This document shows positions 3,002 to 49,261 of a stretch of DNA of 64,000 nucleotides, piece after piece. The stretch is from Octopus sinensis (lineage: Eukaryota): the NCBI RefSeq assembly GCF_006345805.1, contig NC_043002.1, forward strand, positions 28,582,001 to 28,646,000, given 5' to 3'. Under the pieces are notes generated by a model. It was not told the origin of the DNA and made no database searches. It saw only the letters and a list, made by a program, of their open reading frames with translations. Position 1 is the stretch's first letter, and each line of letters begins with the position of its first letter. A program made the translations under genes and the position numbers.

Positions 3002-3228
3002 CCATTCATATATGTACGAAGAAAAATGTAAAAATGTATACATATATATACATTCATACCTATGTATATAAAGGAACATGTGTATATATATATTTATTTA
3101 TATATATATATATATAATATATATATATATACATACACACACACGCACTCACAAACACACACACATACCACATATACATATATTTTGCACGTGGATCTTA
3201 GTGTATACATATTTATATGTACACATAA

Positions 3229-3280
<52 letters not shown>
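1580..3280. repeat. Microsatellite cluster (AT)n, (GT)n, (ATAC)n
   Basis: Directly visible; similar tracts occur throughout the window. Confidence 0.95.
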
Positions 3281-3282
<2 letters not shown>

Positions 3283-3484
3283 ATGTATATGTATATATAA
3301 AAGAGGTGAGGACTGAAATCCTTCAAAAGGATGTCAAACATCCAAGTCCGCCGGTGCAGTCCAAGTACATAATATATATAAAAATATATATTCAGTATTG
3401 CAAAAAGAATAAATGAAATATAAGAAAAGGAAAATTGTAGGTGCAGACGAACTTAAATTCATAATCTAGGTTGGTACAGAACAA

Positions 3485-3583
3485 ATGTACATTCTACATA
3501 TTGTTTCGGAGTCTAATTAATTCCAAAGACAAAAACGAAAAAATTTCATGAAGTAAAAGTAGATTCTTCGTCAGGAATTACAT
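3485..3583 (-). ncRNA. Type I hammerhead ribozyme with extended stem II (copy 1)
   Basis: Minus strand: atgtaattc-CTGACGA-agaatcta...tagactcc-GAAA-ca ata tg-TA-gaatgtacat. Core intact; two mismatches in stem II. Confidence 0.7.
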
Positions 3584-4003
3584 ACTGGTATGAATGATTA
3601 CGACCAACAAAAATATTCAAAGACCTTTTATAGCCCAGACGGAAACGAACAAACAATTTGTAGAATGTATATTGGTTTTGAACCAACTTGGATTGACAGT
3701 TTGATGACAGTGAGAAAATCGAAACTTCAAAGCCACAGTCAACCTTTGTTTTATAAAAATTAATGCGTATGTATTCTATTAAAAAGTAATAATAGTTCGA
3801 CTTAATGATGAGTTGTTTTCATATATAACATAAAAATAAATATTAGATTATATACATGTATACATATACACACATACTTATACTTAGTTGTCTTATATGC
3901 ATGCGGTATATATATGTAGGTGTGTATTTATATGTGTATATACATATACATACACACACACTACACACACACACACACACACACACACACCACACACACA
4001 CAC

Positions 4004-4050
<47 letters not shown>

Positions 4051-4254
4051 ATGTATATGTATATATAAAAGAGGTGAGGACTGAAATCCTTCAAAAGGAT
4101 GTCAAACATCCAAGTCCGCCGGTGCAGTCCAAGTACATAATATATATAAAAATATATATTCAGTATTTGCAAAAACAATAAATGAAATATAAGAAAAGGA
4201 AAAATTGTAGGTGCAGACGAACTTAAATTCATAATCTAGGTTGGTACAGAACAA

Positions 4255-4353
4255 ATGTACATTCTACATATTGTTTCGGAGTCTAATTAATTCCAAAGAC
4301 AAAAACGAAAAAATTTCATGAAGTAAAAGTAGATTCTTCGTCAGGAATTACAT
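4255..4353 (-). ncRNA. Type I hammerhead ribozyme with extended stem II (copy 2)
   Basis: Same motif in the second tandem unit. Confidence 0.7.
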
Positions 4354-4731
4354 ACTGGTATGAATGATTACGACCAACAAAAATATTCAAAGACCTTTTA
4401 TAGCCCAGACGGAAACGAACAAACAATTTGTAGAATGTATATTGGTTTTGAACCAACTTGGATTGACAGTTTGATGACAGTGAGAAAATCGAAACTTCAA
4501 CCACAGTCAACCTTTGTTTTATAAAAATTAATGCGTATGTATTCTATTAAAAAGTAATAATAGTTCGACTTAATGATGAGTTGTTTTCATATATAACATA
4601 AAAATAAATATTAGATTATATACATGTATATATACACACATACTTATACTTAGTTGTCTTATATGCATGCGGTATATATATGTAGGTGTGTATTTATATG
4701 TGTATATACATATACATACACACACACTTAA

Positions 4732-4816
<85 letters not shown>

Positions 4817-10233: not shown

Positions 10234-10864
10234 CAGACAGATAGATACTGAACAAAAAATTTGTTTCAAAACATTAATTAGCAAAAGAATGGGTTTTCGT
10301 ATGTTTTTTAAGTTTCTTTCTTTTTATTTTATTTCATTTTATTTATTTATTTTTCTTGCACTGGGTTAAGGATCAGTTTTTGTTTGTTTGTTCGTTTGTT
10401 TTGGGGTTGTTGTTTTTTAGGGTTTTTTTGTTTGTTTGTCCTTTTTTTGTTGCTTTTATGTTCTTTTATGTCTTGAAATTGCAAATGTTGTTTTCGCAAT
10501 TTTTGTCAACTTTCATCAAGAAAGCAAAATAGTGAAGGTGCTTGTTATTGTCATTTTCTCGTGTGTAACGTAGTTTTGTCTTTGTATGATGAATGACTGG
10601 AGGAAAACCCGAATGGTGGGTGTGGGTGCTGGAGAGATAGTCAAAGGGGTAGATAGGTGAGGAAGATCATGTGTGATATTCCTTCTATGGGATTGATGGA
10701 TAAGAGAGGATGGGAAAGAGGATAAGAAATGGTTGTGCGCTTGTGTTATAGATAGCAGTGGCGGCGGCGGCGGCCGTGTCCATGACAGCAGCTGTGGTAG
10801 TGTTGGTGATTAATAGGGGTGGTAGTGAAGGTGATAGTGAGGATAGTAGTTGTGCTTGTGGCAA

Positions 10865-11150
10865 AGGATGAAAGGCAAAGCCGACCTCGACGGAATTTGA
10901 ACTCAGAACGTAAAGACAGACGAAATAGCGCTAAGCATTTCGCCCGGCGTGCTAACGTTTCTGTTCTGTAGTAACAATAATGCTGCAATGTGTATTTCTA
11001 CCGATTGTGCACATTCTTAGTTCAGATACCGTCGAAGTCAATTTTGCCTTTCACTTTTCCACGGTTGATAAAACAGAGTACTAGGGTGTATAACCAACTA
11101 ACCCACTTCTTTCAAATTTGCTCTCCATTCAACTGAATTTGAAAATATTA
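10865..11150. mobile_element. SINE family C fragments (head-to-head)
   Basis: aaggatgaaaggcaaagccgacctcgacggaatttgaactcagaacg (-) and a decayed + copy at about 11010-11150. Confidence 0.7.
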
Positions 11151-12939: not shown

Positions 12940-14700
12940 TAATGATTATTGTAGTAGCAGCGACTGTGATAATGGTGGTGGTGGTGGTGGCGGCGGCGGC
13001 GGTCGTCGTCTTCGTCGTAGTCGTGGTCGTCGTGATATAATGTTGTTGAGGGTAGTGATGATGTGGATGAGGAGGAGAAGGAGGAGGGAGGGGAGAAAGA
13101 GGAAGAGGAGAAAGAAGAAGAGAAAGAGGAAGAGGAGGAGAAGTAGGAAGAGGAAAAAGAAAAATAAGAGGAAGAGGAGAAGTGGGAAGAGGAAAAAGAG
13201 AAATAGGAAGGGGAAAGAGAAATAGAAAGAGGAAGAGGAGAAATAAGGGAAAGAGAGGATGGGAGAGAATATGAGGAGTGGGAGAAGGAGATGAGGGGAG
13301 GAGGGGAGGGAATGAAGAAGAAGAGGAAGGGGGAGGAAGGATGAGGCAGAAGGGGATGAAGAGGAGGAGGAGGAGTAAGCGGAGGAAGGTTTGAGGGGAT
13401 ATGAGGGTGAGATGAGGAGGAGAGGGAACATGAGGGGAGAGGAGGGGGATAAAAGGGGAGGGGAGGGGAGGAGGGGAGGAGGTGAAGGTGGAGGAGGAGG
13501 AGGAAGATAACGACAACGACGGCCACGACATTGACGATAACGACGAAGGCGATCATGATGGTTATGATGATGATGAAGACGACGACAACGAGGACAAGGA
13601 CGACAGAGAAGTTGATCCTGATCATAACAACGACAAAGGCAATGATAATAATGATGCTGCTGATGATAGTTTGGTATTGGTCGTCGTGATGACAGTGGTG
13701 ACGTCAGCAGCGAGTAATGATAATTAAAGATTGTAATAGCAGTAGCTTTTATGACGACGACGACGACGATGATGATGACGATGATGATGACAATAATGAT
13801 GATGACGATGATGATGATGATTATGACGACGACGACGACGACGATGATGATGATGATTGTGTTACTGGTGGTGGTGGTGGTGATGGTAGTGGTGGTGATG
13901 GTTGCCAAAGATGGAATTAGGCAGAGTGGCGGAGTACACATCGAGGAATCCCGTAAAGATCTGGCCGCCTTCACATATCGCCTCTTGCTTCTCCAACTAA
14001 ACATGATGAATTGACAACCAACACCGCCTCGTTTGTAATTAATTTGCCGTTTTAGGAATTTAATTGCAAATGAAATATGATTTTTAAAAAAATAGCTAAT
14101 GAGAATATCATCAACACAAACAACTGCAACAACACCAGCATCAGCAATAGTACCAACAATAACAACAGCCACAGTAGCAGCAACAAGAACAACGACATCA
14201 ACAACAACAATAATATTGGTAATAATAATAATAATCTTTCCTACTTTTTAGTAGGACTAGGCCTGAAGTTTTGAGGAAGGGGACTAGTCGATTGCATCGA
14301 CCCCAGTACGCAACTGGTACATAATTTATCGACCCCGAAAGGATGACAGGTAAAGATGACCTTGGCGGAATTTGAATAATAATATATTTATAATTAGAAG
14401 AAGATAAGAAGAAGAAGAGAAGAAGAAAAGAAGAGAAGAAAGAAAGAAAGAAGAAGAAGAAGAAGAAGAAGAAGAAGAAAAGAAGGAAGAAGAAGAAAGA
14501 AGAAGAAGAAGAGAAGAAGAAGAAGAAGAAGAAGAAGAAGAGGAAGAGAGGAGAAGAGAAGAAAGGAGGAAGGAGGAGGAAGAGAAGAAGAAGAAGTGAA
14601 GAAGAAGAAGAAGAGAGAAGAAGATGAGGAGGAAGAGAGAGAAGAAGAGAGAAGAAGAAGAAGAGAGAAGAAGAGAAGAAGAAGAAGAAGAGGACGATAG
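12940..14700. repeat. Low-complexity purine-rich and trinucleotide tracts (GAG, GAA, GAT, GAC, AAC)
   Basis: Directly visible; accounts for the long poly-S/E/D/I ORFs in the track. Confidence 0.9.
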
Positions 14701-15150
14701 CACAGAGTCTCTGAAATTTGGTGGGAGGGGACCAGTCCATTTGATCCACCCCGATACGCAACTGGTACCCCGAAAGGATGAAAGGCAAAGTCGACCTCGG
14801 CGGAATTTGAATAATAACAATGATGATGATGATGATTTCAAATTTTTGTATCGAAATTTTGGCCTGAAATCTCGGGGTGAGGGTAAGTCGATATTTAGTA
14901 CTTATTTTGTCGACCCTGAAAGGATGAAAGGCAAAGTCGACTTCTGAGGAATTTGATTTCAGAACGCAAAGATGGATGAAATGCCGCTAAGCAAGTTGCC
15001 CGTCGCGCTAACGATTCTGCCAGCTCACCACCTAAGGCCAGAATTTTTGAGGTGGGGTTAGTCGAAATTATCAACCCCAGTACTTGACTAGTAATATATT
15101 TTATTGACTCTGGAATATATTTTACTAACTCGGCAGGAATTGAACTCAGA
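14240..15150 (-). mobile_element. Cluster of SINE family C fragments
   Basis: Repeated gaccccgaaaggatgaaaggcaaagtcgacctcggcggaatttga blocks at about 14330, 14768 and 14910. Confidence 0.8.
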
Positions 15151-22562: not shown

Positions 22563-22662
22563 NNNNNNNNNNNNNNNNNNNNNNNNNNNNNNNNNNNNNN
22601 NNNNNNNNNNNNNNNNNNNNNNNNNNNNNNNNNNNNNNNNNNNNNNNNNNNNNNNNNNNNNN
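22563..22662. other. Assembly gap (100 N)
   Basis: Run of exactly 100 N. Confidence 0.99.
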
Positions 22663-32229: not shown

Positions 32230-32484
32230 GGATACATACATACATACATACATACATACATACATGCATGCATATATATGGATGTGTGTTCGTGAATGTA
32301 CTTGTATATGTATACATGCTTATGTATATGTGTGATATAGTGCGTACTAAGATATAAAATTGATGTTAGTGACCAACCTTTTCTCTTTTTTTCATTTTCA
32401 CTTTTATATTTTCTTATTTAGACATTTTTTTACCACATTATTTTTCTTAATATAATTGTAACATTATTATTTAATCAGCATAAG

Positions 32485-33200
32485 TCGGTAAGCCAGCAGA
32501 ATGGTTAGCACGCCGGGCGAAGTGCTTTAGCGTATTTCGTCTGCCGCTACGTTCTGAGTACAAATCCGCCGATGCCGACTTTGCCTTTCATCCTTTCAGG
32601 GTCGATTAAATAAGTACCAGTTACGCACTGGGTCGATAAAATCGACTTAATCCGTTTGTCTGTCCTTGTTTGTAATCTCTGTGTTTAGCCCCTTGTGGGT
32701 AGTAAAGAAATAGGTATTTCGTCTGTCTTTACGTTCTGAGTTCAAATTTCGCCGAGGTCGATCTAATCGACTGGCCCCCTCCCCCAAAATTTTCGGGCCT
32801 TGTGCCTAGAGTAGAAAAGAGTTTACGTTCTGAGTTCAAATTTCGCCGAGGTCGACATTGCCTTTCATCCTTTCGGGTCGAGAAATTAAGTACCCGTTCC
32901 GAACTGAGGTCGATCTAATCGACTGGCCCCCTCCCCAAAAATTTCAGTCCTTGTGCCTAGTGTAGAAAGGATTATTTAATCAGCATAAGTCAGTGAGTTA
33001 GCAGAATGGTTAGCACGCCGTGCAAAATGCTTAGCGGTGTTTCGTCCATCTTTACGTTATGAGTTCAAATTCCGCTGAGGTCGACTATGCCTTTCATCCT
33101 TTGGGGGTCGATAAAATAAGTACCACTTGAACACTGGGATCGATATAATCGATTACCCTCTCCTCCGGAACTTCTGGTCTTGTGCCAAAATTTTAAACCA
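32485..33200 (+). mobile_element. tRNA-derived SINE family C multimer (MetaSINE-like central domain)
   Basis: Head gcagaatggttagcacgcc / tgagttcaaattc and body gactttgcctttcatcctttcggggtcgataaa...agtacc, repeated in tandem modules. Confidence 0.8.
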
Positions 33201-33263
33201 ATATTATTTTATCCTTATTGGTACTATTTCACACACTTATTAATATTTTTTTTATTAATATTA

Positions 33264-33669
33264 TTTTATCTGATTTTACTTCTGAGGTCAAATTCTGCTG
33301 AGTTCAACTTTGCCTTCCACCCTTTCCGGTTCGATAAAGTAAATACCAATTGAGAACAAGGGGCAATCTGATCGACCTATCCCTCACCCGAGAATTGATG
33401 TATCAAAAGTAATATTATTTACTCATCCTTTTTTCCATTTCATTTCTTTAATTTCATTAAAAAATTTTATCTGATTTTACTTCTGAGGTCAAATTCTGCT
33501 GAGTTCAACTTTGCCTTCCACCCTTTCCGGTTCGATAAAGTAAATACCAATTGAGAACAAGGGGCAATCTGATCGACCTATCCCTCACCCGAGAATTGAT
33601 GTATCAAAAGTAATATTATTTACTCATCCTTTTTTCCATTTCATTTCTTTAATTTCATTAAAAAATTTT
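33264..33669. repeat. 201-bp tandem duplication containing a decayed SINE C
   Basis: ttttatctgattttacttctgaggtc at 33264 and 33465. Confidence 0.9.
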
Positions 33670-34566: not shown

Positions 34567-35351
34567 CACACACAAACACATACTCAATACCAACACACGC
34601 AAAACGCATATACACACATGCCACACATATACACCCAACAGACATGGACACACATACGAACAAACACATACACACTAAGGCACACGCAACACACTAATAA
34701 ACATTAACCACACACAAACGGGCACACATATACACACACCATCCTACTCCCCAAAATTCTTTAAATAACACACATCTATTCACACCACATCTATTTACAC
34801 CACCCTGAAACAAATCAAAAACAGCCCCCACACACACACACAAACACATGTATACATGTATATGCACACACACAAGGACACACACTCACATCAATCTCAC
34901 CTCCATACAGAACCACATATACACACGCAGCACCATGCCAAATGCCATCCACATACATACATACACACACAACACCAAGACAACCACACACGCGGTTGAC
35001 AAACGGACACACCATCCTACCAAATCTTACAGACACACAAACACCTCTATTCACACCACATATGTAAGTATACACACACACACACACACAAAGACACACA
35101 CACTCACCCCATCCTGACCCCTAAATCATTGATGCTTGAAGGAGAGACAAAATAAATGGTTAAATTCTCTTCAGTTCCACATTACTCCTCCTTTTACGCT
35201 ACCATAGCGGACAGGTCAGTTTTAGCTTCACTACTATTATAATGTAAACCTTTTTGAACTCATAATATTCTGTACGTGTATACTGAACTTTTTAAATAAT
35301 TTCTTCTGGAAATTATCTTGAGAATGTATAATATATTTGTTATAATATATT

Positions 35352-36735
35352 TGAATGAAAAGATTGTGTCACCAGCCCCTTCCCACCCGCGTGTAGCCAA
35401 AACAAGATGCTGTGGTCATCTACTGAGATAAAATATGGTTATCCGTAATAATGAAGGGTGAAATTAATTAATTTGGAATAATTATCAATTACACCAAGTA
35501 GTCATCGGCTTGTAAAAACCTCATTCGAGGAACATTTAAGTAATACTAAGCAATAAAGGGTTTAGCAACGAATTGCCTTACCACATACCGAATTTAGAAA
35601 TAGCAGTCAAAGAGTTATAGCTATTTCTTCTACTAAAAAGGGAGATCTCAGTAAAAACAGCAATTGGAAGGCAGACACAAACAGGTAAGAGAGAATGAAT
35701 TGACGGCAATCTATCATACAATTTTAAGTTATCTACGGACGTACGTTTCGAAATCAAGTCTTTAGGAAAGCATAAGAATTAAATATTAAATAATTCTATC
35801 TTACCAAAAACTTCTTTTCTCTTCAGCGTAGAATACTATAATCATAAATGTTATATATTGAATTTTGAGATACTAGAAGGCACCAACTCAACTCAGTATC
35901 AGAGCGAGCTAGAATCCGCAACTAGTATCACCAAATTCAATGCGTGAATGAAAAGATTGTGTCACCAGCCCCTTCCCACCCGCGTGTAGCCAAAACAAGA
36001 TGCTGTGGTCATCTACTGAGATAAAATATGGTTATCCGTAATAATGAAGGGTGAAATTAATTAATTTGGAATAATTATCATTACACCAAGTAGTCATCGG
36101 CATGTAAAAGCCTCATTCGAGGAACATTTAAGTAATACTAAGCAATAAAGGGTTTAGCAACGAATTGCCTTACACATACCGAATTTAGAAATAGCAGTCA
36201 AAGAGTTATAGCTATTTCTTCTACTAAAAAGGGAGATCTCAGTAAAAACAGCAATTGGAAGGCAGACACAAACAGGTAAGAGAGAATGAATTGACGGCAA
36301 TCTATCATACAATTTTAAGTTATCTACGGACGTACATTTCGAAATCAAGTCTTTAGGAAAGCATAAGAATTAAATATTAAATAATTAATATTTAATTCTT
36401 ATGCTTTCCTAAAGACTTGATTTCGAAACGTACGTCCGTAGATAACTTAAAATTGTATGATAGATTGCCGTCAATTCATTCTCTCTTACCTGTTTGTGTC
36501 TGCCTTCCAATTGCTGTTTTTACTGAGATCTCCCTTTTTAGTAGAAGAAATAGCTATACTCTTTGACTGCTATTTCTAAATTCGGTATGTGGTAAGGCAA
36601 TTCGTTGCTAAACCCTTTATTGCTTAGTATTACTTAAATTTTCCTCGAATGAGGCTTTTACATGCCGATGACTACTTGGTGTAATTGATAATTATTCCAA
36701 ATTAATTAATTTCACCCTTCATTATTACGGATAAC
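35352..36735. mobile_element. PLE terminal-repeat array: two direct copies (593-bp period) plus an inverted copy
   Basis: tgaatgaaaagattgtgtcacc at 35352 and 35945; palindrome arms 36031-36380 and 36385-36735. Confidence 0.85.
35731..35833 (-). ncRNA. Intact type I hammerhead ribozyme, GUC site, palindromic stem III
   Basis: tctacg-CTGAAGA-gaaa[long hairpin]tttc-GAAA-cgtacg-TC-cgtaga. Full core, 6-bp stem I; predicted cleavage between 35738 and 35737. Confidence 0.88.
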
Positions 36736-36746
36736 TATATTTATAT

Positions 36747-37041: not shown

Positions 37042-37087
37042 ATATATATTTATATTTATATATATTCATAATAATATGCAGTTTAAA

Positions 37088-37561
37088 GTAGTTGTATACT
37101 GTCAACTTAATGTGACAGTCCCATGACGGTAATCATACTACTGCTATTTAGCCCTAGGAAGCAGCAACGCTTCCTGCTGGCCTTTACACATTTCCTGTGA
37201 TATTATGTTTACAAGGGGGAGATAAGCACCTCCATCCAGCTAAGCCTGCAATCAGAGACAAGTTTCTGAGTCTTTGCTCGTTATCAGTCTGGAGTAGCAT
37301 GGCCTGCTAGTTGGAGCTGCCTATCTAGCTCTTGTAAACATATAAGAATTCTAGTGAAATAAATTATAAAAATACAAATAATACATTTCTAAATATCTCT
37401 GAGAAATTTATGCAGTAGTGGTACGATAAATTAGTTGTATACTGTCGACTTAATATGACAGTCCCATGAAGGGAATCATACTACTGCTATTTAGCCCAAG
37501 GAAGCAGCAACGCTTCCTGTCGGCCTTGACACATTTCCTATGTCCTTATGTTTACAAGGGG
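37088..37561. repeat. ~345-bp-period direct repeat (PLE terminal-repeat-like)
   Basis: tagttgtatactgtc...atgtttacaagggg at about 37089 and 37431, with a decayed hammerhead in between. Confidence 0.75.
37253..37291 (-). ncRNA. Decayed minimal hammerhead motif
   Basis: caga-CTGATAA-cgagc aaa gactca-GAAA-cttg-TC-tctg; G8>A in the core. Confidence 0.55.
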
Positions 37562-37574
37562 CAACAATTCCAAG

Positions 37575-38400
37575 TCCTGCGCTATCAGCATTCAAACTGA
37601 ATATGAAACTTACAGGGTTCACTGATCCACAGGAAATTTCAATCCCAGGGCCGAAATCAGTGAGGGACCTGGTTTTCGACATGAGTGATGATACCTCTTT
37701 CCAAGTGCACATTACCAGGTTGACAGCAAAGTGCAGACGACTGGCTGGCTCGATCCTGAGATCATTCAAATCCAGAGATAAGGAAACCATGATGGTCTTC
37801 TGGCGTACATTCGTCCTCGGCCACCTGGATTACTGCTCACAGCTATTGTCACCCACCAGTGTGAAATTAACAGCTGGCCTTAAAGCAATCCAGAGAAGAT
37901 GCACAAAGAATATCGTCCCGTTGCAATTGCTCAGCTACTGGGTAAGGCTGAACAGCTAAGACTACTCCTTGGAGATAAGGCGGGAGAGGTATGCAGTAAT
38001 ACACATCTGGAAGATCCTGGTAGGAATTGTGCCAAATTTTGGGATTGGAAGCTACACCAATGCCAGAACTAGACGACACAGCATAGCGCCATAGATCCCA
38101 GCAACCCCATCGCGCTACAGGACAGGTTACTGCAACAGCCTGGGTTTCAGGGGCCCACAGCTTTTTAATATTCTTCTAAAGAGCCTGAGGAATCTGCGCA
38201 AAGTATATGTAGGTGTTTTTAAATCAAAGCTGGACCTCTTCCTGTCGAGAGTCCCAGATGAACCTACTTCACGGCAGATGTGTAAATGAGGGTAGCACAT
38301 CAAATTCCATTCTTCACCCACATATTGGAGGAAGCTCTCAGTAATAACAGTGTAGCAAAACGGCGGTGCATTAGCATGGCCGCAGCACTGAGCTGAAAAT
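37575..38400 (+). mobile_element. CR1-clade LINE 3' fragment
   Basis: VRDLVFDMSDDTSFQVHI...ILRSFKSRD...LDYCSQLLSP...AIQRRCTKNI...YWVRL, then FKSKLDLFLSRVPDEP. Confidence 0.85.
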
Positions 38401-42679: not shown

Positions 42680-42984
42680 TATTTGTCAATGAAAAAAGTT
42701 TCTTTATATAAACGTTCTTGTGGAGATAGTGTGTCTTTCACTATTAGAAGAGGAGGATTGTGAAATTCGGTTTGATGTTATGTGCACATTTTTCTATATA
42801 TTCATTGACAGGAATTTGCCTGTATTGCGGGAAACGGATTTGCTCTTTAGGTAGAGTGGTTCTCTTTCTCAGGGTCATACTCGTTTGTCCAATATAGTTG
42901 TGTCCGCAACCCAATGCAGGTTATTACATAAATTAGGTTCTCAGAGGCACAAGTGAAACTAGTTTTAATTGTGATCCTCTGTTC
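42680..42984 (-). pseudogene. Second PLE GIY-YIG fragment
   Basis: IKTSFTCASENLIYVITC / CGHNYIGQTSMTLRKR...EQIRFPQYRQIPVNEYIEKCA; paralogous to the end of the 415-aa ORF; frameshifted. Confidence 0.85.
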
Positions 42985-42996
42985 ACACACACAGAG

Positions 42997-44384
<1,388 letters not shown>

Positions 44385-47682: not shown

Positions 47683-48854
47683 TAGCATTAGAGACCCGTC
47701 GTTGCCGGGTCAAAGTGCTAGTGCATGTATATATGTGTATATATATGTGTACATATTACATGTACATCTATATATATATACATCTACACATACAATACAA
47801 AATACAAAGTTATATCTTGATATCGCTAGTGATAACAATACTCAAAATATATAACAGACTGGAATTGTTAGCCTCTTGTAATTTCGATCAATTGTATCTT
47901 GTCCTCCCTCTTGTATAGAAGTGTGGCTAGAATCCAGCCTACCTCTACTTCTGGGAGGACATTTTAAATTTTTATCCGGGACGTCCTACGTCCCAGAGAG
48001 AAAGGTAAAAATAAAATATTTCCACTTTGCAAGTTCGAGTCGAGTACTCCCTTGCACGCTCCGTTGACTTGAACATTGCTTCTATTGTGGGGAATTTACC
48101 GCCTCTGATTAGATACCTTTCATAGTCGCACCAAGACAATTTTCGAAGATGCTTTCCTCCATGTGTTCAAATCTTCTTTTTTCTCTACATTGTATACTTT
48201 ATAGACAATAGTCTTTTCTTTAATTTAATTTTTTATTATCAATCTGGACTATTACATTTCTGCACGCTAATTTTATTTTTAATTTATTCCCATTCATGTG
48301 AAACCACTTATTCAAGTTCAAATCATTGACGCAATTTTATACCAATTGCTATTTTTAATTTTGTTATGTTACGATTATATTATACTTTAGTTTGATTTTA
48401 ATTATTACTTACTACATATAATTCAATTGTTATTATTATTTTTATTGTTAAAGTGAAAGTATCTGACATAAAATAGAGAAACGTTTTTGTTTCACTTTTA
48501 ACACGTAATACTGAAATAGTGGAGAAGATATGATATTGCTATGGGCTCGCTCTAGGCAAGAAGTTGAACATTTTTGTTTTTGCCCATGAAAGTACATGGA
48601 CCCTAAGTAAGGCATGCGTAAAATTTGAATGGAATTGGTTGTGTAGTTCTCAAGTTTTAGGGAATCGTAGTGGAGAAGATATGATATTGCTGTGGGCTCG
48701 CCCTAGGCAAAAAGTTCCAAATTTTTTTGCCGATGACACTCCCCGGACCCTAAGTAAGGCATGCGTAAAATTTGAATGAAATCGGTTGTGTAGTTCTCAA
48801 GTTTTAGGGAAACAGACAGACAGACACACATTCTCAGTTTTATGTATATAAAGA
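47682..48854 (-). mobile_element. Non-autonomous Helitron with ~150-bp internal duplication
   Basis: A|TCtttatatac 5' end; hairpin gacccggcaacgacgggtc followed by CTAG|T; 48518-48665 is repeated at 48668-48810. Confidence 0.82.
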
Positions 48855-48864
48855 TATATATATT

Positions 48865-49216
48865 AATAGTTATCGCCAAGCTAATATGGCAGTCCAGGAA
48901 TATAGGACGAATGCTGCCGTTGATTAGCTCCAAGAGGTCATCGCTTCTAGCTAGCTATGTGACACACGAACCTGTGTTCATTATAACCTTCGAACAGGGG
49001 CGATCAGCCGCTTCCCCTTGCTGGTCAGGCATCTGCAGACTAGTTTCAGAGTATTTGCCCCTTATCAATGTACAGAAGCCGAACCCAGCAGGCGTCGCTA
49101 CTAACCGTCTGTTCGAAGGTTATAATGAATACAGAGGCGATGACATCTTGGAGCTAATCAACGGCAGCATTCGTCCTATATTTCTGGATTACCATATTAG
49201 CTTGGCGAAAACTATT
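48865..49216. repeat. Inverted repeat enclosing a decayed hammerhead (49033-49075, minus strand)
   Basis: Arms aatagttatcgccaagctaatatgg.../...ccatattagcttggcgaaaactatt; spacer on minus: ctgtaca-TTGATAA-ggggc aaat actct-GAAA-ctag-TC-tgcag. Confidence 0.75.
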
Positions 49217-49261
49217 CATATCCGGTACCGCTGCCGTTGTCTCCTTTAGAGAAACTTAGAA

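Follow-up and report, generated by a model that had tools for sequence, protein, structure and literature searches.

A palindrome at one end of a hammerhead-bearing repeat insertion in Octopus sinensis turns beside, and not through, the base pairs of ribozyme stem II

The 64-kb stretch of Octopus sinensis DNA analysed here (the window, for short) contains a nearly perfect palindrome. We conclude that it forms one end of a lone insertion, that of a small non-coding mobile element which has a high copy number and carries a hammerhead motif. The turn of this palindrome lies next to the loop of the hammerhead's stem II, not through the base pairs of that stem, and the known insertion pattern of the Penelope-like elements (PLEs) fits the locus better than would a new, ribozyme-primed mechanism.

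The insertion occupies positions 35353-36735 (1383 bp, non-coding) at the edge of a TA microsatellite and is composed of a 593-bp unit repeated head to tail for 1.74 copies, followed by a 351-bp copy that is inverted head to head; its orientation is set by the strand of the hammerhead. Copy 1 (35353-35945, minus strand) is a full non-coding unit of 593 bp with a GC content of 35%. Copy 2 (35946-36386, minus strand, 441 bp) is a direct, 5'-truncated copy that ends inside stem II at unit position 35795, and copy 3 (36385-36735, plus strand) is an inverted, head-to-head and likewise 5'-truncated copy that runs from unit position 35789 back to 35438, its outer end being 85 bp short of that of copy 1. 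The first two copies are 98.9% identical over 444 columns, with three substitutions and two one-base deletions in copy 2, which lacks CUGAAGA. At both borders stands the same 7-bp word, TATATTT (35346-35352 and 36736-36742, plus strand), in an exact match with no shift at either side; beyond the right-hand word the TA microsatellite continues to about 37070. Such matching words speak for a single insertion event and are a candidate target-site duplication, and a candidate they remain, because the word is frequent in these AT-rich and locally repeated surroundings (63 occurrences in 63,994 plus-strand positions, and 2 in the 213 bases to the left of the insertion) and could match by chance. The right border also displays a microhomology, in that 6 of the 7 bases of the right TATATTT match the unit just past the end of copy 3. 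The outer ends differ by 85 bp; the right end can be accounted for by this 6-bp microhomology, and no piled ends are listed for the family. The left flank (35140-35351) is itself repeated in all four of the short-read contig runs that we surveyed, at a depth below that of the unit.

The hammerhead motif lies on the minus strand of copy 1 at 35732-35832, where it was located by motif scan, by folding and by comparison with Rfam RF00163. It is of type I, with a predicted cut between 35738 and 35737, and comprises the conserved core (CUGANGA, GAAA and NUH), three helices and an open helix I; stem I has 6 bp, stem II is 70 nt long (35750-35819), stem III is palindromic and the G10.1-C11.1 pair is kept. 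The tip of stem II (35775-35797, minus strand) folds as a 7-bp A/U-rich stem closed by a 9-nt loop at 35782-35790. A scan for the type I core with pairing checks, on both strands of the 64-kb window, returned this one match. The end-to-end match to RF00163 includes all of the core positions and a long insertion in stem II and scores 21.0 bits, with E 0.0067 for a search space of 191 bases, short of the gathering score of 34; no Rfam family attains its gathering score anywhere in the window. MicroRNA-precursor models of Rfam also match over the palindrome, all below cut-off, and these we rejected as merely reflecting a long hairpin.

The 593-bp unit belongs to an abundant family. Part of the stretch is contained in 20 of the 24 short-read runs listed, the best of which contains 0.67 of the sampled words and none of which is on record as RNA, and the family itself was surveyed by comparing the contigs of four runs, which may come from other individuals or species, with 35140-35944 (the left flank plus copy 1). 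In all four the summed contig depth of the unit is mostly 1e5-1e6, with the lowest bins at 8e3-1e5. A head-to-tail joint, 35942>35352, is found in three of the runs and matching loose ends in the fourth; the unit is therefore joined head to tail in the family. Two bases that are common to all three copies at our locus are mostly absent from the family in the runs: at 35504 another base makes up about 100% of the depth in 4/4 runs, and at 35760 the other base, which turns a stem II G-U pair into A-U, makes up 79-95%. Each copy has, in addition, one or two private substitutions. That all three copies agree in their bases at 35504 and 35760 is what a common source molecule or subfamily would give; on the sequences, the shared and private bases together would reflect either such a single source some time ago or a difference between species.

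Folded as a minus-strand circle, the unit (GC 0.347, with stops in all six frames) reaches -149.8 kcal/mol compared with -120.0 +/- 6.5 for its shuffles (z -4.5; 0 of 40 shuffles as low), while the plus-strand circle has a z of -2.3. Four of five control stretches were unremarkable in this respect and one reached z -5.2. Within the insertion there is no RT and GIY-YIG reading frame such as an autonomous Penelope-like element has: a Pfam search of the six frames of the unit returned one sub-cut-off match (E 0.07) and no PLE protein, and among 15 of the window's 55 long frames it returned no match. Words on the plus strand of the unit that resemble what we take to be the GIY-YIG endonuclease motif had suggested, by eye, a remnant of that domain; this reading found no support, either from Pfam in six frames or from a phmmer search of one frame, which gave no match among 1.84 billion proteins. 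Related loci were likewise absent from metagenome contigs searched with a 26-nt pattern and from viral contigs; the sole match to a 19-nt pattern has just 20 bases in common with the unit and is attributed to chance.

By analogy, the unit appears to work like an animal non-LTR retrozyme that has been inserted with a PLE architecture, or else it may be the solo terminal repeat of an autonomous PLE; in either case its PLE membership rests on architecture and hammerhead, not on a PLE protein. What defines animal retrozymes, according to PMC7229834 (Cervera and de la Pena 2020) and the review PMC7761336, is a tandem, low-GC unit that pairs strongly with itself and contains a type I hammerhead. With the retrozymes of these papers and of a preprint (bioRxiv 10.64898/2026.07.22.740005) the unit shares the non-coding, low-GC tandem arrangement with one type I hammerhead per unit, the strongly self-paired predicted circle, the insertion of more than unit length and the high copy number. 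At 593 bp it is longer than the 150-450 bp first reported for animal retrozymes and falls inside the family range of 51-972 bp given in that preprint. By the rule of the preprint an 'active' copy has two consecutive complete hammerheads; this locus has one, the sole complete motif found in the 64-kb window, and so does not qualify as an 'active' dimer. The main text of PMC7229834, as available, does not contain the word 'inverted'. Like the PLE hammerheads described in PMC4209133 (Cervera and de la Pena 2014) and in RF00163, the motif has type I topology, a complete core, the G10.1-C11.1 pair, a 6-bp stem I and a palindromic stem III suited to the cleavage of dimers. It differs from them in its 70-nt stem II, compared with 4 bp in the canonical form and 6-8 bp in PLE forms, and in scoring under the Rfam cut-off.

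The architecture of the insertion, a partial tandem with an adjacent head-to-head, inverted and truncated copy, is of the PLE type. That PLE insertions often have inverted and truncated repeats had been asserted in the initial annotation, and the legend of Fig. 2 in PMC8557442 (Craig et al. 2021) does describe such an arrangement; the typical PLE insertion there consists of a partial tandem next to which lies a 5'-truncated copy in inverted orientation. Endonuclease-bearing PLEs with an inverted 5'-truncated pseudo-LTR, as described in passages of PMC3846280 and PMC8557442, resemble our locus in this layout and also in their junction palindromes, one-sided extensions, short target duplications (a candidate one at our locus) and AT-rich or microsatellite targets. 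There are differences as well. Those insertions carry an RT/GIY-YIG reading frame between their repeats and this one does not; the one-sided extension is 85 bp here and the PLE tails reported in part of that literature are 30-40 bp; the candidate target duplication is 7 bp here compared with 8-10 bp in the rotifer PLE examples of PMC3846280; and our junction lies within hammerhead stem II, a matter that the relevant passages of PMC3846280 and PMC8557442 do not address.

The 350-bp palindrome originally reported at 36031-36735 is present in the assembly. Its arms, at 36031-36380 (350 bp) and 36385-36735 (351 bp), are separated by a 4-nt spacer and differ by two substitutions, one of them a CpG-type transition, and three one-base indels; within stem III, position 36336 of the left arm has changed from G to A. 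A BLAST self-match extends from 36024 to 36742 (98.06% over 722 columns), the additional 7 bp on each side being due to the likeness of the right flank to the unit. As had been noted, both arms possess the GAAA...GUC half of the ribozyme and are devoid of CUGAAGA, and the direct copy breaks at the apex of stem II and then continues inverted: it follows copy 1 up to 36386, which is unit position 35795, and the inverted copy begins at 36385, which is unit position 35789, the two overlapping by TT. At the mirror axis lies the spacer ATAA (36381-36384), closed by a 2-bp microhomology (AA at 36379-36380 with TT at 36385-36386). The fold-back point had been placed in the stem II loop itself. It is indeed within a few bases of it, but the loop of copy 2 is at 36373-36381, with its centre at 36377, and the mirror axis at 36382.5 is 5.5 nt away. 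The spacer consists of the final loop base and three bases of the next stem arm, and the loop bases are found on both arms; the loop is, in other words, duplicated at the junction. Between the same anchors the observed junction is 54 nt long, 11 nt more than the 43 nt of a junction primed by stem II.

These details bear directly on the suggestion that the ribozyme hairpin itself had primed the turn, which the junction does not support: had the cDNA been extended from stem II, the spacer would be the 9-nt loop in a single copy, and instead the loop is duplicated and the junction is out of the stem II register. The observed register, with its 2-bp stem and 4-nt loop, has a computed stability of +1.4 kcal/mol and a pairing probability of 0.02; for the same cDNA end, the stem II register has values of -0.5 kcal/mol and 0.39. 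For a turn on 2 bp with a loop of 3-6 nt, 173 of the 593 unit positions would be suitable. A weaker role, in which stem II stops the cDNA, would remain compatible with the locus. Two related ideas were rejected. Stalling at the foot of stem II would not place the cDNA end where it is, beyond the loop, since by then, we reason, that arm of the RNA would already be unpaired; and the opening of a hairpin with palindromic additions should have mirrored the end perfectly, which the 11 extra bases do not. The more general part of the earlier proposal, that the palindrome originated by fold-back, is supported, and is not in itself new: the palindromes at inverted PLE junctions were interpreted as products of self-priming in 2013 (Arkhipova et al., in passages of PMC3846280).

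We find it somewhat more probable than otherwise that the locus is the result of one retrotransposition of a hammerhead-bearing, non-autonomous 593-nt unit by a Penelope-like RT/endonuclease, with a turn of the cDNA on the 2-bp microhomology, and we infer the following enzyme action, RNA template and order of steps. A target at the edge of the TA microsatellite would have been cut with a 7-nt stagger, and cDNA synthesis would have been primed by the left target 3' end, the template being minus-strand RNA, multimeric or circular, whose hammerhead site was uncut or religated. Synthesis would have stopped after 1.74 units, in the AT-rich tip of stem II; the 3' TT of the cDNA would then have folded onto an AA lying 4 nt upstream, from where the cDNA would have copied itself over 351 nt. 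Finally, the new cDNA end would have been joined to the right side of the target via the 6-bp microhomology. In the part of PMC11167929 that describes its cleavage, purified PLE protein cuts AT-rich DNA at ATT, and ATT is within the duplicated word, which counts for a PLE-type insertion. Several observations weigh against this mechanism. A hairpin of 2 bp closing a 4-nt loop is unstable, being about 20-fold less favoured than the stem II register, so that a protein-held or stepwise turn must be assumed; no PLE protein was found in or near the unit, in the frames searched; the 85-bp extension exceeds the 30-40 bp of PLE tails; the junction is not listed in any of the four runs; and in one of five control stretches the fold lay as far beneath that of the shuffles as in the unit. 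The argument in a passage of PMC3846280 that head-to-head self-priming requires an antisense template also differs from the cDNA turn that we propose.

The principal competitor, which we regard as unlikely, is a dual (or twin) priming of the target in which both cut strands prime cDNA on the unit RNA, the right one by annealing internally, and in which both cDNAs stop near the same place (the 5' end of the RNA or a pause at stem II) and are joined at the imperfectly self-complementary 8-mer at 36379-36386. Consistent with this, the unit agrees with the right target end in 6 of 7 bases at the point where copy 3 begins, and the 8-mer at 36379-36386 fits both copies at 6 of its 8 positions; the former is equally expected of a fold-back product rejoining its target, and with regard to the latter, 40 of 593 8-mers are as self-complementary as this one and eight are perfect. 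As reported in PMC11167929, both strands are cut and extended by purified PLE protein, a predicted dimer that also starts internally. The one strand-changing family joint among those listed, 35483/35740, is asymmetric, which also favours two cDNAs; it occurs in one contig of one of the four runs, with 34 letters on its short side, and its position 35740 lies not at stem II but 2-3 nt away from where the hammerhead is predicted to cut. LINE-1 inversions rearrange adjacent parts of one RNA. The twin priming and microhomology joining by which passages of PMC10760644 would explain them is a proposed, unvalidated model; those 5' inversions resemble our locus in having an inverted segment within one target duplication and microhomology at the joints, and differ from it in that at our locus the inverted segment is a second copy of the direct one, with 4 nt of spacer between them. 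Dual priming would require that cDNAs of 1034 and 351 nt end at most 6 nt from the same unit position. We prefer an intramolecular turn because it must give a near-zero spacer such as this one, whereas independent cDNAs could be joined at any two positions.

That the stem II hairpin did cause the turn, by self-priming at its tip, with the 11 extra bases resulting from slippage during priming or from a later template switch at the palindrome centre, we judge distinctly improbable. A perfect snap-back of at least 5 bp is available at 11 of 593 unit positions, and among these is 35795, where the direct copy ends after entering the second arm of the stem II tip by 5 nt; the unit's best snap-back site is 35795-35797, with the longest perfect pairing (7 bp) at 35797, and the 23-nt tip is just 3.9% of the unit. 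These odds were calculated after the site had been chosen and concern a single event, the junction is out of register and needs a second event to take its observed form, and the only family joint listed is elsewhere than stem II. An error of assembly or library preparation, in the form of a fold-back chimeric long read, appears very unlikely. In its favour are that the junction is not among the joints listed in the four runs, that the best run has 0.67 of the sampled words and that three of the five differences between the arms are one-base indels, and the assembly does carry errors of this kind, the window having a near-duplicate with 7 gap columns and 1 substitution per ~660 bp. A chimeric read would, however, be expected to run back through copies 2 and 1, and the inverted copy ends instead at 351 bp, at a matching 7-bp word followed by new flank; the arms differ by two substitutions, one a CpG-type transition; and the architecture is as described for PLEs. 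No strand-changing joint at 35795/35789 is among those listed in 4/4 runs, but contigs lose rare forms and the runs may derive from other individuals or species, and the unlisted junction is hence uninformative.

The window has other repeats. A second near-perfect palindrome at 62466-62818 (98.6% over 353 bp, spacer of about 7 nt), in which no hammerhead core was found, runs rightward into a TA microsatellite with a border much like the one at 36735. An imperfect palindromic element (82%) is located between microsatellites at 42984-43426 and, within 42984-44373, has been tandemly duplicated along with its flank (43043-43732 and 43701-44373, 96.7%); a degenerate palindrome at 48860-49221 (70%) stands beside a 148-bp tandem pair at 48517-48811. 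At 3222-4816 there is a near-identical tandem duplicate of ~800 bp (7 gap columns, mostly one-base indels, and 1 substitution in ~660 bp), which may be an uncollapsed duplicate of the assembly, and the assembly has a gap of 100 N at 22563-22662. The stretch 37084-37700 contains a 135-bp direct repeat (37084-37218 and 37427-37561, 90%), folds at z -5.2 and has weak Rfam matches; the repeat lies just upstream of a frame at 37495-37959 that looks by eye like a LINE reverse-transcriptase fragment and for which the Pfam search gave no match. Short related repeats are dispersed in clusters and in both orientations at 32465-33669, 61432-62068, 10862-10970 and 14230-15029.

Self-priming at inverted PLE junctions has, then, already been proposed (in the passages of PMC3846280 mentioned above), and this locus adds one further event. 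A search at the level of titles and abstracts, which left out most subscription papers, found no inverted junctions mapped to hammerhead stem II. There is a bolder reading, decidedly doubtful at present: the long stem II would fix the turn-point of the RT, in that cDNA that has passed the loop pairs with itself, leaves the RNA, slips its register and is extended, and junctions should then pile up genome-wide at the tip. If this were true, the structure of the ribozyme would help to form inverted ends of the PLE type, a role independent of cleavage, and the scars of their insertion would show that retrozymes use the PLE machinery; hammerhead cleavage is dispensable for PLE insertion in vitro, according to part of PMC11167929. 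The locus bears on how PLEs build their inverted ends and on the role of their hammerheads, subjects raised in sections of PMC8557442 and PMC11167929. As a single locus it settles neither, and its junction argues against the simplest model, that stem II primes. A genome-wide map of such junctions would be well served by a family like this one, high-copy, young and non-coding, whose copies carry inverted ends of the PLE type. The proposal that retrozymes are mobilised by PLEs agrees with the finding of a PLE-type scar on a retrozyme-like unit.
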